Assembly: GCA_018649885.1 (NCBI GenBank)
Contig: JABIHA010000084.1
Location: 62,001-126,000, forward strand
DNA length: 64,000 nt
Direction of reading: 5' to 3'
Source of the DNA: Bacteriovoracaceae bacterium
GTDB lineage: Bacteria > Bdellovibrionota > Bacteriovoracia > Bacteriovoracales > Bacteriovoracaceae
Positions 6,555 through 62,231 of the stretch are shown here, piece by piece. The notes beneath the pieces were generated by a model, which saw nothing but the letters and a program-made list of their open reading frames with translations, ran no database searches and was not told where the DNA came from. The translations under genes were made by a program, and so were the position numbers. Each line of letters opens with the position of its first letter. Within the stretch, counting starts at the first letter, position 1.

Positions 6555-7112
6555 TTAAACTAATAGATCCCTAATTTCTAAACAACTTTGATGAATACTC
6601 TTACCTTCTGTGTAAATGATGTGTTTAGCAAGTCGATAATTTGATGGATGCTCAATGAAATTTTTATTGGCAGTGATATTGGTTTCGTCTAATTTTTCTT
6701 TTCTTCGCTTTTCAAGTCTTTCATTGAAAATTTCTAATGACCTCTTCTTATCTTCACAGGGAAGAATGAGAAAGACATTGGGAATCTCACGCAGTAATTC
6801 ACTTACATAATTAAATTGATCGGGATCGGTAAAATAAGAATGTCCAGCGCCAAAATCGATAATAGACTCAGGGAATTCACCAATGATTCCTTCAACGGCA
6901 TCAACTTCAAAAGGCTTCCAATACTCTAGCATTTCGGAAAATGAATCTAGGATTTGCTCTTTTTCCAAGCTAAAGCCTTTTTTATAGTAGTAATACCAAC
7001 GCAAGCGATCCATGGGAACTCTTGGTATATTTGTCACTTTGGCCAATTCACTTGCTATAGTGCTTTTTCCTGTAGCCATAGGACCGATTAGAATGATTGG
7101 TTTCTTGTTCAT
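6555..7112 (-). CDS. Shikimate-kinase-like P-loop kinase
   Basis: GPMATGKST Walker A; IIDFGAGH. Confidence 0.8.
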   Translation of the reverse strand: MNKKPIILIGPMATGKSTIASELAKVTNIPRVPMDRLRWYYYYKKGFSLEKEQILDSFSEMLEYWKPFEVDAVEGIIGEFPESIIDFGAGHSYFTDPDQFNYVSELLREIPNVFLILPCEDKKRSLEIFNERLEKRRKEKLDETNITANKNFIEHPSNYRLAKHIIYTEGKSIHQSCLEIRDLLV

Positions 7113-7630
7113 AGGTATTCTTTGGGCCAGTACTGTCTGGGGTCTTCCTCACCCTTCCAGTAATCAGCTTCTTTATTTTTTTGGTATACAGAATAATTGT
7201 GACCGCCTTCAGGTTTAGCAATTGAGGTTAATATCTTCTTGCTATCAGGATACTCACAAATATCGAGGTCTTCATTGTTTGAAATGGCAATGAAATGAAA
7301 GTCTTCATCAGTGTGATTGTAAAATTGATGAGCAAACTCTAGGCCTGTTTTAAAATGAATGATGTCGCCTTTTTTCACTTCTTTGTACTTATCACCTTGA
7401 CGAAGCATTGCTTTTCCATCGAGAACAATAAAAAGTTCTTCTTCGGCAAAGTGGCAATGAAGAGGACATGAGAAAAACTTTGGTGATAATTTTTCAGCAT
7501 GAAACCCAAGATTCTTTGTTCCCATTTTTGAGGATATATCAGCAGATTCACTTTTGTAGCTCATGCCTTCAGACCAAGGCTTGTACTCAAGCTGATCTAG
7601 ATTCATCACATTTTTCCAATCTTCTTTCAT
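7109..7630 (-). CDS. Cupin domain protein
   Basis: PLHCHFAEEELFIVLDG, AHQFYN and CEYPDS motifs; 4-nt overlap with the next gene. Confidence 0.85.
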   Translation of the reverse strand: MKEDWKNVMNLDQLEYKPWSEGMSYKSESADISSKMGTKNLGFHAEKLSPKFFSCPLHCHFAEEELFIVLDGKAMLRQGDKYKEVKKGDIIHFKTGLEFAHQFYNHTDEDFHFIAISNNEDLDICEYPDSKKILTSIAKPEGGHNYSVYQKNKEADYWKGEEDPRQYWPKEYL

Positions 7631-7831
7631 TTTAAATCCTATGGAGGTTAAGTATGATTGAATCTAGCAAAATTGAGTTATACACGGCAATAATTATATT
7701 GTTTTAGCAAGCATAGAGGCAAAAGACAGGGCGTGATGGCCAGAGCCTTTAATGGTAAATGTTTGTGATTTTCCTGGAAGAATCAGTTTAGACGAATATA
7801 CTTATAGAAGTAGTCAGTAAAGGAGATTCTT

Positions 7832-8884
7832 TTGAAGATAGCAGCATATATATTTTTATTTTTCACTATCTCTTTTAGTGCTCTTTCAATGGGCCCAATA
7901 AAAAAGGCCACTTTTGCGGGGGGCTGTTTTTGGTGTATGGAGCCGCCTTTTGAAAAATTAGCGGGAGTCCAGTCTGTGATTTCTGGGTTTAGTGGTGGCG
8001 TAAAAAAAAATCCAAGCTATCAGGACGTGGCCTATGGAAAAACCAAACACATTGAATCAGTTCAAGTTACCTACGACTCTAGCGTCATTTCTTACCAGAA
8101 ACTACTAGAGACCTTTTGGACAAATGTTGATCCCACAGATAGTGGAGGGCAATTTGTCGACCGAGGTCATCAATATACCACTGCTATTTTTTATCATAGT
8201 GATGAGCAAAGAAAAGCAGCTGAGGTATCAATTGGTAAATTAAAAACCTTGAAAATCTTTAATAAGCCTATAGTAACTAAAATTAGAAGTTTTAATGAAT
8301 TTTTTCCAGCCGAGGAAAGCCACCAAGATTATTACAAAAAATCTACGTTTACAGCATTAAAGTACAAGTATTATCGTTCAAGATCTGGACGGGATGAATT
8401 CATTGAAAAGTATTGGAGTGATAACCGCATTTTTTTAAATAGTGTGAAACAAAAATATGCAAGGCCAAGTGAAAAAATAATTAAAGAAAGACTTACTAAA
8501 CTCCAATTTAATGTCACTCAAAATGATGCAACAGAGAGACCATTTAAAAATAGCTATTGGGATAATAAAAAAGAGGGGATCTATGTGGATATTGTTTCTG
8601 GTGAACCACTTTTTAGCTCCAAAGACAAATTTAAGTCGGGCACCGGATGGCCTTCGTTTACAAAACCACTTGAACCTCAGCATGTAGTTGAAAAAGCAGA
8701 TCACTTATTTGGTATGAAAAGAGTGGAGGTTCGTTCACGTTATGGGAACTCACATTTAGGTCACATATTTAATGACGGACCAAAACCTACCAATCTTAGA
8801 TATTGCATTAACTCATCGGCATTGCGCTTTATAGCCAAAAAGGATCTTAAAAAGCAGGGTTATGCAGAATATGCAGGCCGCTAA
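7832..8884 (+). CDS. msrAB: Exported bifunctional methionine sulfoxide reductase MsrA-MsrB
   Basis: Signal peptide; GGCFWC and AEESHQDYY (MsrA); [14 protein letters not shown] and RYCINS (MsrB). Confidence 0.95.
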
Positions 8885-37481: not shown

Positions 37482-38612
37482 CTAGCCCCTATAAATGCTT
37501 ACAACTTTTTGACTCGCCTCGCCAGTTGATAATATTTGTAGTGAATCTGTCGCTCCTGACTCATCAATACCAGCTAATCTGATATATCTGGCCATAGTGT
37601 CCAGCTCCTTCCATCCACAAATTTTCATCACTGTTGCCGGTGCTACCTTGTTTTGTAATAACTGAGTAGCAAAGCAGGCCCTTAAGTCATGAAAGCGTAT
37701 AGGAGTGATTCCTATGCCCTGACAAAAGGTTTTTAGTGACCTCGCTTGGTAGCCCTGACACCAATCTCTAATTCGCGGTAAAACATGCTCTTTAGTTGAA
37801 TTATTTTTTAACTCTAAGAGCAATTCCTTTAAATCAGAATTGATCGGGATATTTCTCCAATAACCAGCTTTTGTACTTTTAGTCACACGCAATCTTTTAT
37901 TGTACGACTTTGATACTCTGATGCTGTTATTTGTGAAATCCACATCTTCCCAAGTGAGTGCAAAGAGTTCACCATTTCGACAACCCGTTAAAAGGGCCGT
38001 GGCCCAAATGGGATACCAAGGTGACTCTAACTCTCTGGCGGCATCAATCAATTTTGAAATCTCTTGGCGATTTAAAATTGTTGGCACTCGCTCAGTCTTA
38101 CGATTGACTTTGATTCCAAGTGTAGGGCTTTGGTAAACATCTCTAATAAGACCTTCTTCCATTGCCCAAGTGAAAACGCGATTAATCGTTCCTTTCATTT
38201 TTGCTTGAAAGCTTTTTGATTTGTTCGCTTCTTCAATTGACTTAAGCACATTTTTAACATCTGCTCGGCTAAAGTGTTTCGCTGGTTTGTCCCATTGATC
38301 TTTTGTCCACGTCTTAAGTGCCGCTAGATAATCGGTCAATGTTTCAATTCCTACTGGTTCAAACTTATCGACGAGTTTGTAGGCATGCCATTTCTCAACA
38401 ATTTGTCCCCAGTAAAAACCTTCACCATCAAGCTTGGCAACTTCAAGTGCACATTCTTGCAAGAGAAGTTTTTCATGTTTGAGTGCTTGTGCTTTGGATT
38501 CAAAGCCATTTTTTCTTTTTTGCTTGCGAATTTTTGAATTAACTTTGGAACGAACGCACACGAATATTTCATAATACGTTTTTCCATTTTTTTCATAACT
38601 TACAATCGACAT
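37482..38612 (-). CDS. int: Tyrosine recombinase/integrase
   Basis: TGCRNGEL (R), TKAG (K), FHDLR (HxxR), CGW and RY (Tyr); arm-binding-like N-terminus. Confidence 0.95.
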   Translation of the reverse strand: MSIVSYEKNGKTYYEIFVCVRSKVNSKIRKQKRKNGFESKAQALKHEKLLLQECALEVAKLDGEGFYWGQIVEKWHAYKLVDKFEPVGIETLTDYLAALKTWTKDQWDKPAKHFSRADVKNVLKSIEEANKSKSFQAKMKGTINRVFTWAMEEGLIRDVYQSPTLGIKVNRKTERVPTILNRQEISKLIDAARELESPWYPIWATALLTGCRNGELFALTWEDVDFTNNSIRVSKSYNKRLRVTKSTKAGYWRNIPINSDLKELLLELKNNSTKEHVLPRIRDWCQGYQARSLKTFCQGIGITPIRFHDLRACFATQLLQNKVAPATVMKICGWKELDTMARYIRLAGIDESGATDSLQILSTGEASQKVVSIYRG

Positions 38613-38903: not shown

Positions 38904-40277
38904 CTAAAAATCAATGTCGAATCCCTTGCTTCGACTCTTTTTTATATCAAGGGAATTGGATTTTGAAAGAGATTGATCAACCGTTTTCTCTATTACCTTT
39001 TTAGGTTTCATCTTTATTTTGAGTCGGTTTTTGCTCTTTTCTTTCTGTTCTTTAATTTCAAAAAGACCGCTTAAAAGGTCAAACTCTGCATCAAACAGAT
39101 GATCGATCCAGCTACTATTCCCGCTATTGTTGCGTTGGATATGATATTCACTTTGTTGTTGCTGATTTGGTGGATATAGCTGTTCTGATCGAGACTTTCC
39201 TTTAACTGTTTGCAAACTTCTTTGAGCTTTTGAACTTCGAGGTTTTCTCTTTTTAATTTGTTTATCGTGTTGTCGATGTTTACATCGAAACTCTGAGTTG
39301 CCGATTTCATTCGATCCCTCGTTCGGGCCAGTTTCATCAATTCCGAATCGATTGATTTGCTGGCCTGCTCTACTAAGGGCATTAAGTCGTTTTTGATCCT
39401 CTGAAATTGGGCCACGAAACCGTTGTCTATAAATTTTTGCAATTGAGTTGGAGTTATATCCACTCTTATTTCTTGATTTGTCTCTTTCATGTGATTGTAA
39501 ATCATCGCCTGCGCGGTTTTGGATTGTATTTCTTCCATAATTTAATTTCCTTTTAGTTAAGTTTTTCCATGAATAACTGCGCCCAAGATCACTACCTTTC
39601 ATTTTTTCCCCATTGATCTCAAAGCTAATTCCTGAAATGTGTCCAGTTTTGGATTGATTAGGAATTATTTTGACTCCATTTTCGTGCAATCTTTTTGCAA
39701 AAATATCGGCATTGGGACGATCTTCGGTTGCGCCGTCAATAATTTGTTGTAACTGCATTTTGATACTTGGTTTTCTTTCTCGTAGAACTTTGTGAAGTTC
39801 ACCTTTTGTCAGCGCTTTTTTCTCGACCTCATGACTAGATAAAGTGGGAGTGAGACCAAAATGTTTTTCTAGTCCTCGAACTACCTTTTCACTTCTTTTA
39901 TAATCTTGAGAATCGCTTACGACACTGCCATCAAGTCTAACTCTTGAGGCCACAATGTGAACGTGTTCATGCTTGGTATCGTTATGTTTAACGACAACGT
40001 ATTGTGAACCTTCAAACCCCATTTTTTGAACGTACTTATCCGCCGCCTCTTTCCATTTAGAGGTGGGTAAGTGTTCATCATGGGGCAAAGATAAACTTGC
40101 ATGATAAACAGCTCGTGTAAGCTTTGGTCTTAAAGCACGTGACACTGAGAATTCATTAGATAATTCCTTAGGATTCTCACCAAGCATATTGCCACCGATG
40201 ATGGCTGCTTCGTCTTTTCCTAGTAGATAATCTAATGTTCCTCGAAAACCAGTACCCTTAACTTGATTCGCTATCAA
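38904..40277 (-). CDS. MOB-P (VirD2/MobA-type) relaxase
   Basis: GFRGTLDY (catalytic Tyr), VYHASLSLP, HNDTKHEHVHIVASR (3H motif). Confidence 0.92.
   Translation of the reverse strand: MIANQVKGTGFRGTLDYLLGKDEAAIIGGNMLGENPKELSNEFSVSRALRPKLTRAVYHASLSLPHDEHLPTSKWKEAADKYVQKMGFEGSQYVVVKHNDTKHEHVHIVASRVRLDGSVVSDSQDYKRSEKVVRGLEKHFGLTPTLSSHEVEKKALTKGELHKVLRERKPSIKMQLQQIIDGATEDRPNADIFAKRLHENGVKIIPNQSKTGHISGISFEINGEKMKGSDLGRSYSWKNLTKRKLNYGRNTIQNRAGDDLQSHERDKSRNKSGYNSNSIAKIYRQRFRGPISEDQKRLNALSRAGQQINRFGIDETGPNEGSNEIGNSEFRCKHRQHDKQIKKRKPRSSKAQRSLQTVKGKSRSEQLYPPNQQQQSEYHIQRNNSGNSSWIDHLFDAEFDLLSGLFEIKEQKEKSKNRLKIKMKPKKVIEKTVDQSLSKSNSLDIKKSRSKGFDIDF
39071..39538 (-). CDS. Overprinted ORF in an alternative frame of the relaxase (coiled coil plus C-terminal TM; MobB/MbeB-like arrangement)
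   Basis: AAGGA SD, ATG 39538, 155 aa, hydrophobic tail ATIAGIVAGSIICLM. Confidence 0.6.
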   Translation of the reverse strand: MEEIQSKTAQAMIYNHMKETNQEIRVDITPTQLQKFIDNGFVAQFQRIKNDLMPLVEQASKSIDSELMKLARTRDRMKSATQSFDVNIDNTINKLKRENLEVQKLKEVCKQLKESLDQNSYIHQISNNKVNIISNATIAGIVAGSIICLMQSLTF

Positions 40278-41161: not shown

Positions 41162-42223
41162 TTACCTTATGAGATAAGTTGTACCTCTTCCTTTACCCTG
41201 TTGCTTGATAAGACCTTTATCTACAAGCCTTTTCATAAGGTCTTTCAGGCCATCGCGTGACATCTCTACATTTTCTAAGATGAAAGATATTTTACATTCT
41301 TCTTCTGCCTCAATAATACTGTAAACTTTTTTCTCATTTTCATTCATTACTGAGTTTGGTGCTTTATGAATAAGCGTGCTGTTAAGAAAATCAGTTTGTA
41401 CCGTAAGAACTTTTAAAAAGTAATTTATCCAATCATCGTATTTAACTTTTTCATGAAAGCTTGATTGGGTACTTCTTAAAGAAATGTAATAACCTTCTTT
41501 ATTATCTTCGATAACTTTTTCATGAGAAGTGTACTGTGCCCATTTGTAATCGTTCTTTAATAATAAAAGAGTTGTTAATAATCGGCTTAATCTTCCATTG
41601 CCATCTCTAAAAGGGTGAATCGCTAAAAAGTGAACAACAAAACCAGCAATAAGAATTAATTGTTGGCATTCTTTTTTAGCTTTCATGTCGATATAGTCAG
41701 AAATTAAATTCGCCATTGCTGATTCTGTTTCTGGCCCAGGGGGAGCTGTTTTAAACCAAACTTTTATTACCTTTCCTGTCGCTCTGTCTTGTTCAACTAC
41801 ATCATTTGTTACATTCTTGTATGCACCCCTTTGAGTTGAGGGAAGTTGTCCGTCGGTAAGTTCACTTGTCAAAAGTTGGTGAAGCTCTCGTATCGTTTTC
41901 TCTGAGACATCTAGCTTTTCATAATTATCATAAATGTAATTAAGGGCCTTAACATATCCAACAACCTCTCTTTCAGAGCGAGACGACATATCGTTTATTT
42001 CGCAGCCTTTTTCAATAAGCTCTTTGACTTGTTCGTCAGCTAAAATTGCACCTTCTATTCTAGTGGAAGCACCAGAAGAGGTAATGATGGTTGTCTTTTT
42101 TAGACTCTCAACAAGTGCCGGCCTTTGAAACTTAGTTGTCTCAAAAGCCCCTTGGAAACGTTCAATTTTTGTTATCTGCTCAGCTTGCTGGCCTGTAAGT
42201 ACATGACTTTTAATAGTTTTCAT
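41162..42223 (-). CDS. Fic-domain protein with C-terminal winged HTH
   Basis: HPFRDGNGRLSR; N-terminal STRIEG inhibitory-type motif; C-terminal LVDKGLIKQQGKGRGTTY. Confidence 0.9.
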   Translation of the reverse strand: MKTIKSHVLTGQQAEQITKIERFQGAFETTKFQRPALVESLKKTTIITSSGASTRIEGAILADEQVKELIEKGCEINDMSSRSEREVVGYVKALNYIYDNYEKLDVSEKTIRELHQLLTSELTDGQLPSTQRGAYKNVTNDVVEQDRATGKVIKVWFKTAPPGPETESAMANLISDYIDMKAKKECQQLILIAGFVVHFLAIHPFRDGNGRLSRLLTTLLLLKNDYKWAQYTSHEKVIEDNKEGYYISLRSTQSSFHEKVKYDDWINYFLKVLTVQTDFLNSTLIHKAPNSVMNENEKKVYSIIEAEEECKISFILENVEMSRDGLKDLMKRLVDKGLIKQQGKGRGTTYLIR

Positions 42224-42226
42224 AAA

Positions 42227-42299
42227 AACACCCAATTAACACCTGTAAAACACCCATAATAATAACTTAGAAACACCCAAAAAACACCTATAAAACACC
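42227..42299. repeat. Six phased AACACC direct repeats upstream of the Fic gene
   Basis: Starts at 42227, 42238, 42249, 42272, 42283 and 42294. Confidence 0.85.
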
Positions 42300-44193: not shown

Positions 44194-44341
44194 AAAAAAT
44201 ATTATTAAAGCCCCCTGATTGAATTAGACTGATATTGCTTTAAAGCAATTATTTAAATCAATATTTTCCCAATTAAATTAATTGGTTATCCAGCTTATAA
44301 TTAAAGATATAGATGTTTTCCATGGAAGGAAGAAGGTAAAA

Positions 44342-47300
44342 ATGAGCAGGAAGCTACCAACTACTATAAGTAGATTGAAAGAATTGTTTGAGCGTAATTT
44401 AGACTCATATTCTTCAAGCAAATATAATGAGACACAAGTTCGTCGTGAATTTATCGATCCATTTTTTGAAGCACTAGGATGGGATGTTGGAAATAAAGAA
44501 GGAATTGCAGAGCAGTATAAAGAAGTAATTCATGAAGACAGTATTATTGTGGGTAACTCCAAAAAAGCTCCTGACTATTGTTTTAGAGTTGGTAGTGAGA
44601 GGAAATTTTTTGTTGAAGCTAAGAAACCTGCTGTAAATATTTCTAAAGATGTGGATAGTGCATTTCAACTCCGGCGTTATGGGTGGTCAGCAAAGCTCGG
44701 TCTTTCAATTTTAACGAATTTTAAAGAGATTTCTGTTTATGACTGTAGAGTAAAGCCTAAACAAAATGATAAAGCTAGCACTGCAAGAATTATGCATTTT
44801 TCTTTTGAGGAATTAGATGAAAAATGGAGTGAATTAGAAGATATTTTTTCTAAAGATGCAGTATGGAAGGGAAGCTTTGATAAGTTTTCCTCTATTTCGG
44901 GCAAAAAAAGAGGCACAACAACTGTAGATGATGATTTTCTTAAACAGCTAGAAGGTTGGCGAGCATCTTTGGCAAAGAACCTTGTTAAATTAAATAAAAA
45001 TATAAATCAAAGAGACTTAAATTATTCAGTTCAAAGGACTATTGATCGAATTCTATTTTTGAGAATTAGCGAAGATAGAGGATTGGAAAACGATGCTCAG
45101 CTTCAGAGCTTACTTTCTAAAAAGAATATTTATAAGGGATTATGTGAGTTGTTTCTTATTGCCGATGAGAAATATAATTCGGGGCTTTTCCATTTTCATA
45201 AAGAGAATGATCGTCCAGAACCACCAGATGAATTAAGTTTGAAGCTTAATATTGATGATAAGACTTTAAAAGAAATATTTGAAAATTTATATTATCCAAA
45301 TTGTCCGTATGAATTCTCTGTTATGCCGGCAGAAATACTTGGGCAAGTCTATGAACAGTTTCTTGGAAAGTATATCAAGGTAACAAGTTCAAAACGCGTG
45401 ACTATTGAAGAAAAGCCAATTGTGAAAAAAGCGGGAGGTGTCTTTTATACCCCTGCCTATATTGTGAATGAAATCGTAATTGAAACAATTGCACCATTGC
45501 TGAAAAACTCAACACCCTTAAAAGTATCTCGATTAAAATTTGTTGATCCGGCTTGTGGTTCGGGATCATTTTTAATAGGAGTTTATGATTATATTCTAAA
45601 CTGGCATTTGGACTATTATATGAGTAACAATCCAAAAAAACATACAGATAAAGTTCACCTAAACAAGAATAGAAAATGGGTATTAACTTCTTCTGAGAAA
45701 AAACAAATTCTATTGAATAATATATATGGAGTAGATATTGATGCTCAGGCCGTCGAGACAACAAAATTGAGCCTGCTTTTAAAGGTATTGGAAAATGAAA
45801 CTCACGAGGCGATAAATAAGCAGCTATCCCTTTTTAAAGAGAGGGCTTTGCCCGATTTAGGGGATAATGTTAAGTGTGGGAACTCGCTTGTTGATAGCAA
45901 ATTTTTTAACAAGTACGATCATAATCAATTTGGCGATGATGAAATGTTTAAAATAAATCCATTTGATTGGAAAAAAGAGTTTCCGGCCGTATTTAAGGGA
46001 AATAAGAAAGGATTTGATGCCGTTGTTGGAAACCCTCCATATGTTAGAGTTCAACTCCTAAATGAAATAATTCCTAAGCAGGCTGAATTTTTTACTTCAC
46101 AGTATAAGTCTGCTCAAAAAGGAAACTATGATATTTATGTGACCTTCGTAGAACGAGGATTAGATATTTTAGATGCAAATGGAGTCTTGGGATATATTCT
46201 TCCACATAAATTTTTTAATGCTGAATACGGAGAGCCATTACGGGAAGTGCTATCTTCTGGAAAGCATGTGAGAAAAATTGTTCATTTTGGAGATCAGCAA
46301 GTCTTCAAACAGGCCACAACATACACTTGTCTTCTATACCTCACAAAAATGGCTAAGAAAAAGCTCGAATTTGAAAAAGTCGTGAACTTAAATGAGTGGA
46401 GATTAAAGAGACAAGCTGAAAAAGGAATTATGAGTACAAAGTTCTTAAACTCAGACTCTTGGTATCTATTATCAGACTCTGAGCGAAGTCTAATGAACAA
46501 ATTGGATAAAATGGATAATACTTTGGAATCTATGACATCAAGAATTTTCCAAGGACTAAAAACCAGTGCTGATAAAGTTTACATAGTGGATAAAGTTAAA
46601 TCCAAGAAAAAGAATTATGTAATTTTCTGTAGAGAAGATGAAAAGGAATACGAAGTAGAAAAAGATCTATTTCACACTCTCATTAAGGGAGGAGATAGTC
46701 GGGATTTTATACAGAAAAGCTCTAAAAGATTGATTCTGTTCCCTTACGGTGTTCGTGAAGGTAATGCTTCTATTCTTTCAGAGGCGGAATTAAAAAAGAA
46801 ATACCCTTTAACATATAAATATTTGAAATCTCATAAAGTATTTTTGTCAGGTCGAGAGCGTGGAAATATAGTACAGGGAGGTAATCCTTGGTATGTCTAT
46901 GGAAGAACACAGGCATTAGATCAAATTTCTAAAAAGAAAATTTTCACACCTGATATTGCGCCTAAACCAGAATTTTCCGTAGATCAAAAAGGTAGTACTT
47001 ATTTTACAGGTGGAGTCTCGGGTGGATATGGAATTTTACCTAATGATGATAAATACTTTTATTACCTTTTAGGCTTCCTTAACTCATCTTTTTCAAATTG
47101 GTTTATCCGTAAGACTTCTACTCAAATGAGAGGTGGCTTTTATAGTTTTGAATCTAAATATATAAAACACATCCCTGTTCCTATCCCCACAGAGAGTCAG
47201 CTTAAAGAGATTAACGAACTCGTAAAGGGAATAATTTCAACTTCAAAAAGCATTGAGGCAAATAGCTCCGGTGCAGACAATACTCTTTTAGCTAGAAAGC

Positions 47301-47413
47301 GCGACCGGTTAAAAAATGCGATAGATGAAATTGTATATGGGGCTTTATCCCTTAATAAATCAGAGCAGAGTATTGTAAAAACAGCAGGGGAATTATTATC
47401 TCAAGTTTCTTAG
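44342..47413 (+). CDS. Type IIG (Eco57I-like) restriction-modification fusion
   Basis: N-terminal PDY...VEAKK nuclease; GVFYTP, DPACGSG, GVDID and GNPPY (adenine MTase); TaqI-C-like target-recognition region. Confidence 0.92.
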   Translation: MSRKLPTTISRLKELFERNLDSYSSSKYNETQVRREFIDPFFEALGWDVGNKEGIAEQYKEVIHEDSIIVGNSKKAPDYCFRVGSERKFFVEAKKPAVNISKDVDSAFQLRRYGWSAKLGLSILTNFKEISVYDCRVKPKQNDKASTARIMHFSFEELDEKWSELEDIFSKDAVWKGSFDKFSSISGKKRGTTTVDDDFLKQLEGWRASLAKNLVKLNKNINQRDLNYSVQRTIDRILFLRISEDRGLENDAQLQSLLSKKNIYKGLCELFLIADEKYNSGLFHFHKENDRPEPPDELSLKLNIDDKTLKEIFENLYYPNCPYEFSVMPAEILGQVYEQFLGKYIKVTSSKRVTIEEKPIVKKAGGVFYTPAYIVNEIVIETIAPLLKNSTPLKVSRLKFVDPACGSGSFLIGVYDYILNWHLDYYMSNNPKKHTDKVHLNKNRKWVLTSSEKKQILLNNIYGVDIDAQAVETTKLSLLLKVLENETHEAINKQLSLFKERALPDLGDNVKCGNSLVDSKFFNKYDHNQFGDDEMFKINPFDWKKEFPAVFKGNKKGFDAVVGNPPYVRVQLLNEIIPKQAEFFTSQYKSAQKGNYDIYVTFVERGLDILDANGVLGYILPHKFFNAEYGEPLREVLSSGKHVRKIVHFGDQQVFKQATTYTCLLYLTKMAKKKLEFEKVVNLNEWRLKRQAEKGIMSTKFLNSDSWYLLSDSERSLMNKLDKMDNTLESMTSRIFQGLKTSADKVYIVDKVKSKKKNYVIFCREDEKEYEVEKDLFHTLIKGGDSRDFIQKSSKRLILFPYGVREGNASILSEAELKKKYPLTYKYLKSHKVFLSGRERGNIVQGGNPWYVYGRTQALDQISKKKIFTPDIAPKPEFSVDQKGSTYFTGGVSGGYGILPNDDKYFYYLLGFLNSSFSNWFIRKTSTQMRGGFYSFESKYIKHIPVPIPTESQLKEINELVKGIISTSKSIEANSSGADNTLLARKRDRLKNAIDEIVYGALSLNKSEQSIVKTAGELLSQVS

Positions 47414-47433: not shown

Positions 47434-48456
47434 ATGGCAAATTTATATAATAAGACATTAAAAGAAACATTTTTGCCCTTTGAGTTTGATAAAGAAGCTG
47501 ATTTTGAAAAAATTATCGTAGAATTATCAGAGCAAATTTTTGGAGAAGAATCGATATATCTGGATATAAAGAAAAAAGTTCGTGGAGGAGATATAACGAC
47601 GATCCCAGATGGGTATGTTTTAGATTTAGCCGATCCGATGAACCCATCACTGTATGTTATTGAAAATGAGATCGTTTCACATGACCCATTTAAGCATATT
47701 GGAATTCAACTTTTAAAGTTTGCTACAAGTTTTGATGATGGAAAACAAACAATTAGAAAGTTCTTAATGGAAGAAATTTCTAAAAATGATGACTTTCTAA
47801 AGAAATTAGAAAAAGCATGTTCCAATTCGCAACATAGAAATATAGATAATTTTTTAGATATAGCTGTATTTAAAAAATTTAAAGCTATTGTTGTTATTGA
47901 TGAAGCAAGACCAGAGCTACATAATGTTTTAGAAAAAATTAATGCTGATATCTCTGTGATTGAGTTGAAAACATTTATTAATAGTAAAAAAGAGTTTATG
48001 TACTTATTCGATACTATTTATGATGAAAATGAGGATGAAGCCCCGAAGAGCAAAGAGAGCAAGGCTTACTCAGCAGAGGATAGCGCAAAAAGAAGAGCAC
48101 GAAGGGCCAAGTGCGATACTATAGTTGTTCCAGCCCGAGAAGAGGGCTTTAAGGATGTCTTCTTAGGACAAAATAAGTGGTACGCAATAAGAATCGGAGC
48201 AGCGATGAAAGATAAAATTAAATACATTGCTGCTTATCAAAGATCGCCTATAAGCTCGATTACTTATTTAGCAAAAGTTAAAGATATTCGTCCTTTCCAA
48301 AATACGAATAAATATGAGGTTCTTTTTGATGGAGCGGCTCAAAAAATTGGACCAATAAAACTAAAAGACTCAAAAATGTCACCTCAATGTCCTGTATATG
48401 TAGAGCATTCAAAGCTACAATCAGCATCGTCAGTTGATGAGTTACTTGAGTACTAG
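47434..48456 (+). CDS. Putative PD-(D/E)xK-type nuclease with C-terminal accessory domain
   Basis: EADFE...IPDG...VIENE...HIGIQL; C-terminal DTIVVPAREEGF...WYAIRI...YIAAYQ domain; 20 nt after the R-M gene. Confidence 0.6.
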   Translation: MANLYNKTLKETFLPFEFDKEADFEKIIVELSEQIFGEESIYLDIKKKVRGGDITTIPDGYVLDLADPMNPSLYVIENEIVSHDPFKHIGIQLLKFATSFDDGKQTIRKFLMEEISKNDDFLKKLEKACSNSQHRNIDNFLDIAVFKKFKAIVVIDEARPELHNVLEKINADISVIELKTFINSKKEFMYLFDTIYDENEDEAPKSKESKAYSAEDSAKRRARRAKCDTIVVPAREEGFKDVFLGQNKWYAIRIGAAMKDKIKYIAAYQRSPISSITYLAKVKDIRPFQNTNKYEVLFDGAAQKIGPIKLKDSKMSPQCPVYVEHSKLQSASSVDELLEY

Positions 48457-48458
48457 CA

Positions 48459-49535
48459 CTAGTTTATTGTTGCAAGCCTGAACTTATTTATGGCAGCATC
48501 ATCAATTTTCTTCGCTACGTCAGTCAAATACTCCATTTTTTCTAACATTGAATCGATTGATAGCTGGTGTTCAGTGTTTATAGTAAAGTCGGGGTAATAA
48601 ACAAGAAATTTCTCGTCAGTTATTCCATTTTTATGAGAGTATAAATGTCTAATTTGTAGAATTTTTTCAATGGCTATTTGTTCTGTTTCTTCGATTACAT
48701 TAAGAGATGAAATTTGTTTATTGTCAGCAATAAACCCTTTTACGCTTCCTCTTTGTAGTTTGCTAATTTTTTTCTTGGCCCAAAAGGAGATAAATTCATC
48801 AATATCATTACAGCTTAGAATTTCTTTAACTGAGACTTGCTCTTCTGACCTTAATGTTTCAGGTTTCGCGAGATATATTTCATATAAGAGGTCTGATAAA
48901 TAAGTTTCAAAATTATCTGCACAAGAGGAGAAAAGGATTCTGGTTAGAATTTTACCTTCTTGGTTTGTTGTCGGTGTTGTTGGGTTAATCGGATACAGAA
49001 TTCTTTTAAGATCATCTACTATATTCAAAATACTTTGAAAATGCTCGATATACCTTGTCAGCGCACCTGACGATACACTAGCTTTTAATTCAAGTCTCTC
49101 GAAAAAATCCTTAATTCTCAGGTAACTGGTTTCATGAAATGGTTTTTGCTCTGGCTTTTTAACAGTTGTTTGATCACCATGTCGTTCAAAAACCTTATCT
49201 CCGATTACAATCGGTGTTGACGATTTCTCAACTTTAATAACATATAATTTTTTTCCTTGATACTCTATATATTGGTGATCTACCTTAGGTGAAGGAGTTA
49301 GGAGTTGAATAGCTTTACTAGTGATTGAGTTGGCATGAAAGTCTTCACTTAATCCCTTCACTTCTATTGAGCCATTAGTTTCAACTATTCCAAGAATAAT
49401 ATAGCCACCCTCCGCATTGGCAAATGCAGACAGCAGTAAACCAAGTCTTCTTGATGGAGGTAGTACCGCCTTGTACTCTAAAGTGAGACTTTCAGGCTGG
49501 CCTATTAATTTTTCTATTTCGTCTATTTCAATCAT
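48459..49535 (-). CDS. Schlafen/AlbA_2 domain fused to a HEPN-like RNase domain
   Basis: ESLTLEYK and SAFANAEGGYIILGI (AlbA_2); FETYLSD helix and RHLYSH (RxxxxH) in the C-terminal half. Confidence 0.8.
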   Translation of the reverse strand: MIEIDEIEKLIGQPESLTLEYKAVLPPSRRLGLLLSAFANAEGGYIILGIVETNGSIEVKGLSEDFHANSITSKAIQLLTPSPKVDHQYIEYQGKKLYVIKVEKSSTPIVIGDKVFERHGDQTTVKKPEQKPFHETSYLRIKDFFERLELKASVSSGALTRYIEHFQSILNIVDDLKRILYPINPTTPTTNQEGKILTRILFSSCADNFETYLSDLLYEIYLAKPETLRSEEQVSVKEILSCNDIDEFISFWAKKKISKLQRGSVKGFIADNKQISSLNVIEETEQIAIEKILQIRHLYSHKNGITDEKFLVYYPDFTINTEHQLSIDSMLEKMEYLTDVAKKIDDAAINKFRLATIN

Positions 49536-49544
49536 AGTGTGTGC

Positions 49545-52073
49545 CTATATTGGAAATTTTCTTATTTCAGCTTTTTTTAATATATGTCCTAAGGTAATCC
49601 TTTTTTGTTCCGTTCCTCTGTCGATCCAAAGTTCTGCTTGTTCATAGTCCAATATATCTCTCTCAGCACCGTAGTAAATAATAACCTCACCTGAATATGC
49701 CGGCCTTACAACAATGTTAATTTCATTGTTGTCTTTTTTGATTCCACTTAAAACTGTCGGCGCAATTTCTTCTGAGTTTGTAATGTCGTAATTGGAAAGA
49801 GTGCTTAAGTGTTGAATTACATTTTGTTTAGCCCTGCCAATTAAGCTTTGAGCATAAACGAACATATCTGTTGTTGGTGTAGACTCATGAGAAAATAGTT
49901 CTGCCAAGTTCTTGTCTTGAATAGCTTTTTCCCATTCTTCTATGGATGTTATTCCCATGTTTGCGATAATTTCTTCTGTGATAGGTAATAATGACCCAGA
50001 GCTTACTTCTCTTGATTTGATTAATCTTCTCAGCTCTTCAAGGTTATTTGCACCACAATCGATAATAAGTTCATCTAATTGTTCAGCTTTGTTCATGTTT
50101 TCCATGATTTCATCTTCGTTATATAGAATATGTTTTCGACTATACAAGTCTGGAAAATGCTTTCTTGCTAGTTCTGGTGCATCCTTAAACCAACCAAGCA
50201 GCTTCTTGAAAGCCTCATTATCATTTTGAGTCTTTTCTACCATTAAATATTTCTGCATGACATTACTTGAAATCTCTTTTATTAGACAGGGGAGATCAAT
50301 GATTCTGTCTTCAGGAATTTCAATATTCACACCTGTAACTACTAAACGACTTTTAACATCATTGCCAAAATAGGTAAGTATTTCTACTAATTCATTAACT
50401 AGGTCTCCATTATCTTTATGAAGAACATCTTTCTGACAAAAAATACCATGCTGATTAGGGAAAATCGCTCTTTTGTTGATGATGGAATCAAACTCTTTTT
50501 CGTCAGTAGCTAGCATAGAGTAAAAATTATTTAACCAGTCTATAGAAGTAGCTTTATTAATAGACACAGAAAGTTGATGAAGAGTTTTTTGATTTTCAAC
50601 AAATTCGGAAAAGCGATCCGGTGTCAATCTTCCATGATTGATCCATGTAAGCTTATGCCATGTTTCGATGTCCTCTTTTCTAGGCATAGCATGAGGGAAC
50701 CATTCATTTGCTAATTCCCATATTTTCAATCTAAGCTCTTTTTTATAACCGTATGGAAATTGTATAAATTCAGTTCCGTCGCCGTTTAAGATTGCAGCAG
50801 GACTATCGCCAGCTGATGTATTTACAATTCTAGTATAGAGTAATTGGTTTTTTATTGAGGTGAGAATATTTTCATTGTACCAATCTCTTGTTATCCAATT
50901 GAGGCCATCCTTAATGTAGCCGATGTTTGCTAAAAGATGCAGATTTTTCCAACTACTTGCTGTAGCTGTTTGCAGTAAATTGCAAAATAGTTCGATAGCT
51001 TCTAAAAGAATTGTTCGATTTTCATTCACGAGTATATTTTCTCTTTGCCCCGAGTTTAAAAATATACCATCTCTTGGATCAGTTGGATTAAAATGTGGGT
51101 TATTTACTATTACTGGAAAGGGGAAAGCTTCGGTACCAACAAGAGGAAAATCACAAAACAATTTAGGCACTTCATCTGGGATTGGTTGAATTGTAACATT
51201 ATTTTCCTCTATTCTTATTGGTAGAGCAATTGTTGTGAAACCTTTTGTTAAGGTTACAATGTTAAAGTAATTGGAACCGATTGAGTCCCCTTGAACCTGG
51301 ACATTATTGTAAATAACTTGATTTTCTTCGTGTGTATTAAGAGGGGCTGACGGCACATTGAAATAAACATTCTCTGGAAAAATAGATAGCTTTCTTATTT
51401 CTGGCACAAATATAAGCGAATAAGGAAGGCATTTTTTTAAATCGTCGATTCCTTTTTTCGCAATATTGAGAGCAACACAATCGTTAAGAGGGTAGGTAAA
51501 AAAAGTATTAAATGCACCTTCTTGGTAGCCATTGTATGACTGAAGCTCGTCTAAATTTTCAACGGATTTTTTTGCCAATTGAACGGCATTAATAATTTTT
51601 TGTAATTCACCTCCGCTTCTATCAAGAATTAGTTCAAAGAGCTTGTATTCTAATTCTGGTTCTTTAGCTACGGAATTGATTTTAACAGTTTCAGAAAGTA
51701 AATGAGTGGATAAAAAGCCAGTGCCAAACTTACCAGTTGTTTTCCTTTCACCATTATGATCTTTACTACGATCTTTCGTTGATATTTGCTCAATTAAAAA
51801 TCTTATATTGTCAGCGGAAAATGGTTTACCTGTGTGGCTAAAAATAATCTCACTTTTTGAAGGTGAAGTGCTGAATTGAATTTGTATATCGACACTTCCA
51901 TTTGTATGAATATCTTTCGCATTCTGAATTAGCTCCCAAATCCACCGCCTTGGTGCTGTTGATGAAACCTCGGCTTGGGACCTGAGGTCTCTCATTTCTC
52001 GATCAATCTTTGTCGCAATGTTTTGGTAGTGAGCTTTGTCTTGCGAAGCTGCAAATTTTTCCCGATATCCCAT
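49545..52073 (-). CDS. Sacsin-like GHKL (HATPase) protein
   Basis: RWIWELIQNAKD, FSHTGKPF, GKFGTGF, LFCDFPLVGTE, FNPTDPRDG. Confidence 0.85.
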   Translation of the reverse strand: MGYREKFAASQDKAHYQNIATKIDREMRDLRSQAEVSSTAPRRWIWELIQNAKDIHTNGSVDIQIQFSTSPSKSEIIFSHTGKPFSADNIRFLIEQISTKDRSKDHNGERKTTGKFGTGFLSTHLLSETVKINSVAKEPELEYKLFELILDRSGGELQKIINAVQLAKKSVENLDELQSYNGYQEGAFNTFFTYPLNDCVALNIAKKGIDDLKKCLPYSLIFVPEIRKLSIFPENVYFNVPSAPLNTHEENQVIYNNVQVQGDSIGSNYFNIVTLTKGFTTIALPIRIEENNVTIQPIPDEVPKLFCDFPLVGTEAFPFPVIVNNPHFNPTDPRDGIFLNSGQRENILVNENRTILLEAIELFCNLLQTATASSWKNLHLLANIGYIKDGLNWITRDWYNENILTSIKNQLLYTRIVNTSAGDSPAAILNGDGTEFIQFPYGYKKELRLKIWELANEWFPHAMPRKEDIETWHKLTWINHGRLTPDRFSEFVENQKTLHQLSVSINKATSIDWLNNFYSMLATDEKEFDSIINKRAIFPNQHGIFCQKDVLHKDNGDLVNELVEILTYFGNDVKSRLVVTGVNIEIPEDRIIDLPCLIKEISSNVMQKYLMVEKTQNDNEAFKKLLGWFKDAPELARKHFPDLYSRKHILYNEDEIMENMNKAEQLDELIIDCGANNLEELRRLIKSREVSSGSLLPITEEIIANMGITSIEEWEKAIQDKNLAELFSHESTPTTDMFVYAQSLIGRAKQNVIQHLSTLSNYDITNSEEIAPTVLSGIKKDNNEINIVVRPAYSGEVIIYYGAERDILDYEQAELWIDRGTEQKRITLGHILKKAEIRKFPI

Positions 52074-52360: not shown

Positions 52361-52390
52361 AAAAAGGCCGATGTAAAAATCGGCTTTTTA
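52361..52390. terminator. Element-borne bidirectional-type terminator directly downstream of tRNA-His
   Basis: A-run, GCCGAT-GTAAAA-ATCGGC, T-run. Confidence 0.8.
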
Positions 52391-52394
52391 AAAA

Positions 52395-52471
52395 TGGGGT
52401 GGCTGATGGGACTCGAACCCACGACAAACAGAATCACAATCTGTCGCTCTACCAACTGAACTACAACCACC
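52395..52471 (-). tRNA. tRNA-His (GTG)
   Basis: G-1, acceptor GTGGTTG/CAGCCAC, C discriminator, encoded CCA; anticodon arm ACAGA-TTGTGAT-TCTGT; GTTCGAG T-loop. Confidence 0.97.
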
Positions 52472-61236: not shown

Positions 61237-62231
61237 TTTGGATGATTGTCTTTTTACTATTTCCTACAGCAGCTCTATGTGAGGAGAGCTCAGCTACCTC
61301 TCAGGCCTTACAAGAATTTTTTAAAAGGCAGCAAAGCCGAGGGGAAAAACCCTTTGGGGAAAAGGGCAGTGAAAAAAGTAGCGATGTGAATTTAGGTCAG
61401 GGTGCTAAGAAAGTATCTGGAAAACTAAAATCTATGGAACAAGAGATTGGCCTAAAAAATGAAAAATCTATTTACGGCTATTCCTGGGATATTTTTGTCA
61501 GACCATTTGAGCTGTCAAAAATAAGTAAGCTTCAAAATATTACTATTGGCACTGATATTATGGACAAAGACCCCAAGATCAAAAAGTTTGGTTATGAAGG
61601 GCATTTCAAGGCCAACCGACAAAAAAGAGTAGATATTTATAGTAATAACAAAATCTCCTTCACCAATTTTGATGGTTCGGCCCAATTTTTTTACAACGAC
61701 ATTTTAGGTAAAGCTGACTATTTTGCTTTCATTGGAGGCGAAAGAGAAAAAGAAGGCGGTCTTAAATTAATCCATTACCGGATTTTGGCGGGGATAACTG
61801 GTTTAAAAATCGATTTTATAAAATCAAAAAATATTCAGGAATTTAGCTTTGGCTATATTCCTCTATTTGAACAAAGACATTTTGATAAAATAACCGATAA
61901 GTCTGATCCCAATAATATTGCCACCTCTAGGGTGGTTGATAATTTTATTCGTCACTCCTTTAGACTTAGTATTCGCATGCTTTTATGGGAGCGTGTAATT
62001 TTTCGCTCTCTTGCCATGTGGCAGCCCAAACACGACCTAAAGACAAAAGATTTTGACGCAGAAGACTCTGATTCCAAAGTCACTGCTGATTTTGTGATAA
62101 AGGTTATTAAAAACCTATCCTTTGCCTACACCACTGAATTTCTCTACAACGTGGCCAGGGAAAAACTTCATCAGCGCTCTAGCACTGATCTACACCAGGC
62201 TTTTTCGCTCGGTTATACTATTGATCTTTAA
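61227..62231 (+). CDS. Probable outer-membrane beta-barrel protein
   Basis: Signal peptide; C-terminal FSLGYTIDL. Confidence 0.6.
   Translation: MSLVWMIVFLLFPTAALCEESSATSQALQEFFKRQQSRGEKPFGEKGSEKSSDVNLGQGAKKVSGKLKSMEQEIGLKNEKSIYGYSWDIFVRPFELSKISKLQNITIGTDIMDKDPKIKKFGYEGHFKANRQKRVDIYSNNKISFTNFDGSAQFFYNDILGKADYFAFIGGEREKEGGLKLIHYRILAGITGLKIDFIKSKNIQEFSFGYIPLFEQRHFDKITDKSDPNNIATSRVVDNFIRHSFRLSIRMLLWERVIFRSLAMWQPKHDLKTKDFDAEDSDSKVTADFVIKVIKNLSFAYTTEFLYNVAREKLHQRSSTDLHQAFSLGYTIDL

Follow-up and report, generated by a model that had tools for sequence, protein, structure and literature searches.

A Tiamat-like sacsin-type ATPase gene paired with a Schlafen-HEPN gene: a candidate two-gene anti-phage system in a Bacteriovoracaceae genome

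Do an ATPase related to sacsin and a neighbouring protein with two RNase-type sites work together as a defence system, and has such a system been described? The question is raised by two co-oriented open reading frames (ORFs) in a 64,000-nt stretch of Bacteriovoracaceae bacterium DNA (the window: forward-strand positions 62,001 to 126,000 of contig JABIHA010000084.1, assembly GCA_018649885.1). Both lie on the minus strand: gene 1 (49545..52073; P0001, 842 aa) is followed by gene 2 (48459..49535; P0002, 358 aa), with a spacer of 9 nt between the gene 1 stop and the gene 2 start (49536..49544). An initial annotation, made from the sequence, had proposed an undescribed defence system here. Its lengths, shared orientation and 9-nt spacing for the two ORFs are correct, and so are the four motifs to which it pointed, ELIQNAKD (within WELIQNAKD) and GKFGTGF in gene 1, ESLTLEYK and RHLYSH in gene 2. 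We propose, with a probability of roughly 60 %, that the pair is a split Tiamat-like anti-phage system in which a sensor ATPase controls a separately encoded Schlafen-HEPN dual-RNase effector. That the two genes form a defence module, whatever the division of labour between them, we regard as more probable still.

Linkage and genomic distribution of the pair

Gene 2 was the starting point for collecting loci: from 133 pattern matches came 122 confirmed relatives, of which 80 loci were kept, a design that samples gene 1 only where it stands beside gene 2. A gene 1 homolog is found directly upstream of gene 2 and on the same strand in 79 of these 80 loci, and the single exception, L062, begins inside gene 2 at a contig end. 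The gap between the two genes is mostly -4 to +6 nt (77 loci listed). The loci belong to about nine phyla, with Bacteroidota, Cyanobacteria, Acidobacteriota, Planctomycetota, Bacillota, Campylobacterota, Bdellovibrionota, Chlorobi-type and alphaproteobacterial records represented, and at least 122 confirmed gene 2 relatives occur among the matches in one-genome-per-species contigs. When the 499 flanking ORFs were clustered, no family was present in more than 9 of the 80 loci; since no flanking family recurs, the module consists of two genes. The pairwise identities of gene 1 and gene 2 are correlated (Spearman 0.52, calculated on 465 non-independent pairs from 31 loci).

The module is seldom encountered and patchily distributed. 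Full-length gene 2 is present in one of 121 related genomes; TmtA, the Tiamat profile discussed below, matches 3 genomes out of 401 for the phylum, two of them strongly; and neither the plasmid nor the phage collection contains a match to P0002.

To describe the genomic context we started from the 57 loci with flanks of at least 3 kb, chose 27 for taxonomic spread, dropped four for size and examined the remaining 23. PADLOC models were hit at E<=1e-10 by 35 of the 130 flanking ORFs, with at least one hit in 19 of the 23 loci. The neighbouring systems vary from locus to locus and include Gabija, pAgo, AbiE, Iet, Mza, type I and type IIG restriction-modification (R-M), Lamassu, Dpd and several candidate systems. 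The expectation that homologs of the two genes would co-occur as a pair in defence islands is borne out by these loci.

Domains and motifs of the two proteins

The PADLOC model TmtA (PDLC03967, Tiamat) matches gene 1 with an E-value of 1.7e-124, aligning residues 3-650 to profile positions 4-638 of 1063. By this match the core of the protein is homologous to the DUF3684 region of TmtA, and what the initial annotation had called a long unassigned body is thus largely assigned. The same model recognises gene 1 homologs from other loci in 11 of 11 cases (1e-126 to 1e-151), and the last third of the profile stays unmatched in all 11, in the forms of ~850 aa and of ~1040 aa alike. A full-length TmtA match, covering the 1063 positions, was not found among the 401 genomes of the phylum. 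The sacsin-like character noticed at the outset is upheld by NCBIfam, where the model P_loop_sacsin (sacsin N-terminal ATP-binding-like) matches at E 2.2e-20 with 72.9 bits, against a cut-off of 50; Pfam HATPase_c_3 falls just short (E 5.9e-05, 23.5 bits against a cut-off of 25). As judged from these matches, gene 1 is a sacsin-like GHKL ATPase of Tiamat-like type.

Conservation divides gene 1 into two constrained ends and a variable middle. The ATP-binding region (residues 41-150; 51624..51953, minus strand) holds the WELIQNAKD and GKFGTGF motifs and has a mean pairwise identity of 0.55 over 31 homologs, in which W44, W46, E47, L48, Q50, N51, A52, K53 and D54 are invariant, together with G114, F116, G117, T118, G119 and F120. 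A C-terminal block of ~150 aa (residues 691-842; 49548..50003, minus strand), composed of helix and beta-sheet, is conserved just as strongly, at 0.55. The middle (residues 151-690; 50004..51623, minus strand), a presumed sensor or solenoid, is the least conserved part of the 31-homolog alignment with mean identities of 0.34-0.41; the TmtA profile covers it up to residue 650, and Pfam assigns no family to residues 142-639 even at E<=10.

Gene 2 starts with a Schlafen/AlbA_2 domain (residues 15-123; 49167..49493, minus strand; Pfam PF04326 SLFN_AlbA_2, E 3.6e-16), in agreement with the initial reading of an intact Schlafen motif. The Ex4ExK residues E15, E20 and K22 (ESLTLEYK; 49470-49493, minus strand) are retained in 74, 78 and 77 of 79 aligned loci, respectively; the Ex4(E/D)xK motif of bacterial Schlafens has been defined previously and called catalytic (PMC13056530, section 6). 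An AlphaFold2 (AF2) model of gene 2 with a predicted local distance difference test score (pLDDT) of 81.5 was compared to known structures. Foldseek returned SLFN13 (5yd0, E 1.5e-04), SLFN11, SLFN14 and SLFN5, and VIA-align matched the Schlafen domain to 3lmm (Z 12.2, root-mean-square deviation (rmsd) 3.0, 121 aligned) and to SLFN11 7fex (Z 10.5, rmsd 2.6, 107 aligned, chain residues 187-325), so that both structure searches place residues 15-123 with the Schlafens. Among 5126 candidates, at least 1006 protein clusters are related to gene 2 at E<=0.001, and the best 120 of these relatives span the full length with identities of 54-62 %. The mean pairwise identity of gene 2, computed alongside that of gene 1, is 0.56.

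The remainder of the gene 2 model is all-helical over residues ~139-356 and contains the putative HEPN-like domain (residues ~155-350; 48486..49073, minus strand). Its top structural matches are HEPN proteins, 5yep_B at Z 8.8 (rmsd 3.5, 131 of 133 aligned), then 7ae2 (7.9), 2hsb (7.5), 1ufb, 1jog, 4nqf, 8oz7 and 5hy3 at Z 6.6-7.9, a set that includes AbiA and LsoA, and the HEPN domain of sacsin itself (3o10; Z 7.0, rmsd 3.7, 126 aligned), all of them below the value of about 13 under which the comparison tool rates a match between helical domains as weak. The stronger argument for a HEPN assignment is, in our opinion, the Rx4H motif formed by R296 and H301 (RHLYSH; 48633-48650, minus strand). 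All 79 aligned loci keep R296, H297 and H301. When 1.84 billion representatives were searched with a profile of the domain, 1422 proteins came up at E<=0.001, many of them 220-310 aa long with other N-termini, and in an alignment of 66 sequences that includes distant relatives, at a mean column identity of 19 %, R296 and H301 are the sole invariant columns (consensus RNLxVHNRG). Pfam gave nothing above threshold on 27 distant relatives, and two of these have sub-threshold hits to HepT-like (0.021) and RiboL-PSP-HEPN (0.051). An ESM Atlas search with residues 135-358 returned unnamed clusters only. This domain looks like a HEPN family that so far lacks a Pfam model; the proposed HEPN identity thus stands on its invariant motif, and the fold match behind it is modest.

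In sum of its parts, gene 2 appears to have no obvious sensor and to carry two RNase-type sites, one in a single-lobe Schlafen domain (Ex4ExK) and one in a HEPN-like domain (Rx4H).

A split sensor and effector weighed against other explanations

How much of this is already described? Tiamat was presented as a standalone gene (preprint 10.64898/2026.09.30.754977, introduction), with a core of TPR-like repeats, an unassigned fold and a pseudo-protease fold, and the same preprint recognises 'Tiamat-like' types with swapped effectors, of which Type II-A consists only of the ATPase and DUF3684. Its section 17 characterises the region that corresponds to the variable middle of gene 1 as TPR-like/'Fold B'. 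Gene 1 shares with Tiamat the N-terminal sacsin/Hsp90-type GHKL ATPase, the core and the defence-island setting, and the logic of effector swapping applies to the pair. Unlike strict Tiamat, gene 1 has no PD-(D/E)xK/NOV_C domain that Pfam or hhalign recognises and is paired rather than standalone, with the proviso that the loci were found via gene 2. Tiamat neighbours are reported to be mostly helicases, methyltransferases and nucleases, in contrast to the Schlafen-HEPN gene found here. Type V-A has a fused Schlafen-like domain devoid of catalytic residues together with a peptidase, whereas the Schlafen domain here belongs to a separate protein, with an intact Ex4ExK and a HEPN-like domain. 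Sequences of fewer than 900 residues were removed in the preprint, a cut-off that would exclude the majority of the gene 1 family at ~840-870 aa. Phage protection, ATPase and DNase activity are reported only for the Tiamat of B. cereus, which cuts single-stranded DNA (section 19 of the preprint).

Gene 2 has been catalogued as well. A survey of bacterial Schlafens, which cleave tRNA in defence (PMC13056530, abstract, section 6), sorts 5,930 proteins into 55 architectures. Its class pSlfn17 (15 members, defence score 0.87; Supplementary files 21, 22) comprises 11 'pSlfn.HEPN.HEPN' proteins of 354-362 aa and four unrelated 'HEPN_Toprim_N.pSlfn' proteins. Gene 2 shares the architecture of the former, their length, the position of SLFN_AlbA_2 at about residues 15-124 and the Ex4(E/D)xK motif. 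One listed member, NZ_JAPCHZ010000005.1_77 (81764-82834), is in fact the gene 2 of our locus L019, which covers 74773-89831 of the contig and carries this gene at its own positions 6992-8059; it is 55 % identical to P0002. The supplement also records, as a table entry only, a DefenseFinder hit 'Tiamat__TmtA' within 10 kb of 10 of the 11 pSlfn.HEPN.HEPN members; none of the words Tiamat, HEPN, GHKL, Hsp90, sacsin and HATPase appears in the main text. In the scheme of that study the domain fused to a Schlafen is the sensor. Gene 2 departs from this scheme: its fused domain would be a second RNase, and the sensor a separate gene.

Schlafen fusions within the MAE_18760 HEPN family were recorded as early as 2013 (Anantharaman et al., PMC3710099, Table 1). 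For MAE_18760/MAE_28990 an Rx4-6H HEPN domain fused to Schlafen is on record, along with Abi-like architectures (Table 1 and section 12), a combination that gene 2 resembles, and the RNxxxH consensus of the wider gene 2 family aligns with the RNxxxH of a PF18737 member. PF18737 itself matches neither gene 2 (E<=10) nor the genome of the window. The operon partner given in 2013 was a ParA/Soj ATPase, unlike the GHKL ATPase that accompanies gene 2 (PMC3710099). Among the literature that we searched, 'Tiamat' and 'Schlafen' are joined only in the Tiamat preprint, which is silent on a Schlafen-HEPN neighbour and whose supplements may bear on this, and 'Schlafen', 'HEPN' and 'sacsin' occur together only in that preprint and in PMC3710099. 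Both component families are therefore catalogued already, Tiamat profiles catch gene 1, gene 2 is of class pSlfn17, and calling the system undescribed overstated the case; the pairing itself, with its obligate partnership and its split into sensor and effector, is apparently new.

We hypothesize that gene 1 is the sensor and switch of the system and that its fast-diverging middle probably recognises a phage cue. In the uninfected cell gene 2 would be inactive. Binding of the cue to the variable middle of gene 1 would trigger the ATP-dependent N-terminal dimerisation typical of GHKL proteins, and this change would be relayed through the conserved C-terminal domain to gene 2, whose HEPN and/or Schlafen domains would dimerise into active sites. 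Active gene 2 would then cut tRNA or other RNAs, translation would stop and the infection would be aborted.

As to contact between the two proteins, we modelled gene 1 residues 640-842 together with gene 2, with our own alignments supplied, and obtained the grade 'weak support' at a score of 0.50 (runs of 0.53, 0.46 and 0.50), compared to 0.04 for the best control; the partner has a pLDDT of at least 80 and the runs share at least 84 % of their contacts. In the calibration of the tool, whose counts hold only roughly when alignments are supplied, 116 of 157 solved complexes reached the mark, as did 2 of 215 mismatched pairs; at scores of 0.60 or lower it was reached by only 18 of the 157 solved complexes together with both passing mismatches. 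We take the prediction as a hint, no more, that the gene 1 C-terminus may contact gene 2.

If this reading of the pair is true, sensor and effector are separate proteins and the hand-off between them is directly testable. Class pSlfn17, itself sensorless, would gain a sensor, and the Tiamat and bacterial Schlafen literatures would be connected.

The combination also recalls eukaryotic sacsin, which has Hsp90-like ATPase repeats and a HEPN domain, and for which a stress role at the RNA level has been hypothesised (PMC3710099, section 14). In both cases a sacsin-type ATP-binding domain is combined with a HEPN-type domain, to which it would be functionally linked in the pair, and the order of ATPase, solenoid, beta-sheet domain and HEPN resembles the sacsin layout presented in preprint 10.64898/2026.09.30.755639. 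Differences are that the bacterial version is spread over two genes, has one ATPase unit instead of three and an added Schlafen domain, and lacks a J domain; the HEPN of sacsin moreover belongs to another family, HEPN-T (PMC3710099, Table 1). It is a speculative and rather unlikely idea that the operon corresponds, in split and prokaryotic form, to the sacsin layout, that sacsin-type ATPases have governed HEPN RNases since an ancient immune mechanism and that the HEPN of animal sacsin is a relic effector. On the same idea the pair would be the first bacterial example in which two different RNase sites, Schlafen and HEPN, on one partner are gated by a GHKL sensor. Should the resemblance reflect common descent, a human disease protein with a HEPN domain of no known role could be studied through a tractable model in bacteria.

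Several points weigh against a split anti-phage system with two RNase sites. The seven systems tested in PMC13056530 (section 6) do not include class pSlfn17, and the defence role that we propose for the pair is predicted from sequence. The count of defence neighbours (19 of 23 loci) comes from hand-chosen loci and stands without a matched random-gene control. In the structure search, the HEPN matches at Z 7-8.8 are interleaved with rhodopsins and other helical bundles scoring alike. The HEPN-like domain has no Pfam hit (E<=10) and no PDB profile hit (0 at E<=10), and hhalign against one MAE_28990 member is weak (probability 12 %, E 0.0024, 41 columns, with the motifs aligned). The score of the predicted contact lies in the weak band, where the tool deems passes to be mostly wrong unless a contact was likely beforehand. 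Finally, residue 80 of gene 1 (window ~51834-51836) is a His, in the context H80-x-G82, and is nearly invariant in the 31 homologs. This position is presumably that of the adenine-contacting Asp of GHKL proteins (Asp-x-Gly, in a D-x-G-x-G motif), and with a His in its place ATP hydrolysis by gene 1 is not assured. For comparison of this ATPase motif II we had considered three long NOV_C-bearing ORFs as possible canonical Tiamat; they turned out to be HmaA helicase-nucleases.

The first alternative is that both proteins are effectors. Gene 1 would be a complete Tiamat with a diverged and active DNA nuclease of the NOV_C type at its C-terminus, and gene 2 would add or tune RNA cleavage, so that phage DNA and phage RNA would both come under attack. 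The ESM Atlas speaks for such a diverged domain: residues 690-842 find as their top match a NOV_C cluster, 99 % of whose members carry PF13020, with 177 shared features, 16 of the 30 hits falling within the same set, and a feature score of 0.94, on a scale that is uncalibrated for protein parts and on which 4 to 10 in 100 shuffled proteins score at least 0.9. The structural rows of the same search list the C-termini of sacsin-like ATPase clusters (template modelling (TM) score 0.70) and a Hjc resolvase (TM 0.52/0.56). The C-terminal domain is as strongly conserved as the ATPase head, and there is a precedent in 'Type I-A', whose divergent PD-(D/E)xK domains were missed by InterProScan (10.64898/2026.09.30.754977, section 21).

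Direct comparisons argue the other way. Pfam NOV_C has no match in gene 1, in the 31 homologs or anywhere in the genome of the window, and hhalign of the 31 gene 1 C-terminal domains against 13 true NOV_C domains gives a probability of 0.09 %. The residues invariant in those 13 domains (G, D and E-V-K) have no evident counterpart among the invariant residues of the gene 1 domain, which are H729, K780, R790, P791, E804, E814 and W816. An AF2 model of residues 640-842 is poor (pLDDT 62) and its best structural match, at Z 5.3, is uninformative. DUF3322 was also considered and not trusted, with weak Pfam hits in 11 of 31 members and a best E of 2.9e-4. A canonical nuclease thus remained undetected in gene 1 by the Pfam search, the homolog and genome searches for NOV_C and hhalign, and we treat its C-terminus as a conserved helix-plus-sheet domain with no recognisable D...ExK site. 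The domain may nevertheless be a diverged NOV_C nuclease on the strength of the Atlas match, and an active one would make an effector of gene 1 as well, contrary to the division of labour that we propose. We consider this improbable.

In a second alternative the pair resembles a toxin-antitoxin system: gene 2 would be a constitutive RNase toxin and the Hsp90-like gene 1 its antitoxin or chaperone, with restraint lost upon infection or loss of the island. HEPN domains are the toxins of MNT-HEPN systems (PMC3710099), the two genes form a tight operon with the larger gene first, the island resembles a mobile element with an integrase and a relaxase, and the predicted contact, weakly scored, would suit an antitoxin as well. 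The loci in which gene 1 is broken bear on which gene controls the other. Gene 1 is disrupted beside an intact gene 2 ORF in 12 of 74 assessable loci, by five frameshifts, two in-frame stops, three insertions (0.85-3 kb) and two deletions that leave only the final ~60-70 codons. An indispensable antitoxin should not be the first to go, and the disrupted loci fit a gene 2 that is inert without its activator rather than a free-running toxin. Sampling through gene 2 biases toward intact gene 2, the five frameshifts among the 12 disruptions are possibly assembly errors, and a retained C-terminal remnant of gene 1 might still neutralise. An ATPase of 842 aa with a fast-diverging middle is, on the other hand, far oversized for a simple neutraliser. 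On balance we find a toxin-antitoxin arrangement improbable as well.

The three insertions are located at 4183-5436 in L043 (~1.25 kb), 1018-4072 in L058 (~3 kb) and 5341-6194 in L065 (~0.85 kb), with gene 2 intact in each. In a single protein of 941 aa, P0272, residues ~20-662 of gene 1 are fused to residues ~237-356 of gene 2, the part that holds the HEPN half and its Rx4H, whereas both the gene 1 C-terminal domain and the Schlafen domain are missing. P0272 is probably an in-frame deletion fusion and was not used as evidence.

A third possibility, that a Tiamat variant and a pSlfn17 Schlafen are two independent single-gene systems that travel together in defence islands, draws on the standalone nature of Tiamat and on the fact that many bacterial Schlafens consist of one protein to which a sensor is fused (PMC13056530, section 6). 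It is difficult to reconcile with same-strand adjacency at gaps of a few nucleotides across about nine phyla while all other neighbours vary, or with the correlated identities of the two genes, and each protein appears to lack what the other supplies, gene 1 a recognisable effector and gene 2 a recognisable sensor; we hold it to be very unlikely. Least credible of all is a non-defence module for RNA quality control or stress, in which a chaperone-like ATPase and RNases would limit translation under stress as proposed for sacsin: about 14 % of Tiamat-like proteins do reside in non-defence neighbourhoods (10.64898/2026.09.30.754977, section 23), yet this pair is sporadic even among related genomes, is surrounded by varied known defence systems and, in this window, shares its low-G+C island with genes for an integrase, a relaxase, a SoFic-like protein and a type IIG R-M enzyme.

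The island and the genes around the pair

The initial annotation placed the pair at the tRNA-proximal end of an integrative and mobilizable element (IME). A tRNA-His gene (52395..52470, minus strand, ARAGORN), the possible integration site of the island, indeed sits 321 nt upstream of gene 1, a tyrosine integrase (37482..38612) and a MobA/VirD2-type relaxase (38904..40277) are encoded on the far side of the pair, and G+C falls to 0.33-0.35 across 44-52 kb of the window. A second copy or direct repeat of the tRNA-His 3' end was not found within the window, which leaves the far boundary of the island unmarked. Integrase, relaxase and lower G+C fit a mobile island, and the IME label is in this sense plausible.

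Directly after tRNA-His a G+C-rich hairpin followed by a T-run (52366-52392, minus strand) is probably its terminator, in which case gene 1 would require its own promoter in the next ~290 nt. An exact TAnnTTTG promoter motif is not present in the 321 nt upstream of gene 1.

On its other side the pair converges, as was first noticed, on a type IIG R-M enzyme of 1043 aa (44282..47413, plus strand; PADLOC REase_MTase_IIG E 2.4e-275; Pfam Eco57I) that lies outside the pair. Between this gene and gene 2 is a 340-aa ORF (47434-48456, plus strand), convergent on gene 2, which begins 20 nt past the type IIG R-M gene and stops 2 nt from the gene 2 stop codon. Pfam and NCBIfam gave no family for it, and its only match is a weak one to PADLOC PDC-S18 (E 1.4e-05, N-terminal 120 aa); possibly it serves the type IIG R-M enzyme as an accessory. 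Further along, a Fic protein with a C-terminal winged-helix domain (41162-42235, minus strand; PADLOC SoFic E 2.3e-41) is, by this SoFic-like match, a predicted third defence-type gene within the same island as the pair.

Two arrangements recur upstream of the pair in other genomes. An ORF pair of ~800-895 aa and ~346 aa is found in 6-8 loci, mostly Flavobacterium-type records, and stands directly upstream of gene 1 on the same strand in L013, L018, L019, L039, L041 and L077. Its only PADLOC hit, in L019, is 'Effector endonuclease', over the first ~98 aa (E 8.9e-16). This ORF pair may be another unnamed module, or may reflect shared synteny among relatives. In L022, L034 and L038 a type I restriction R subunit and a ~230-aa ORF are followed by the gene 1-gene 2 pair, all on the same strand, a layout that recalls 'Type I-J' of the Tiamat preprint, where the Tiamat gene is embedded in a type I R-M system (10.64898/2026.09.30.754977). 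L071 holds a 1010-aa ORF of the same family as in the upstream region of these three loci.

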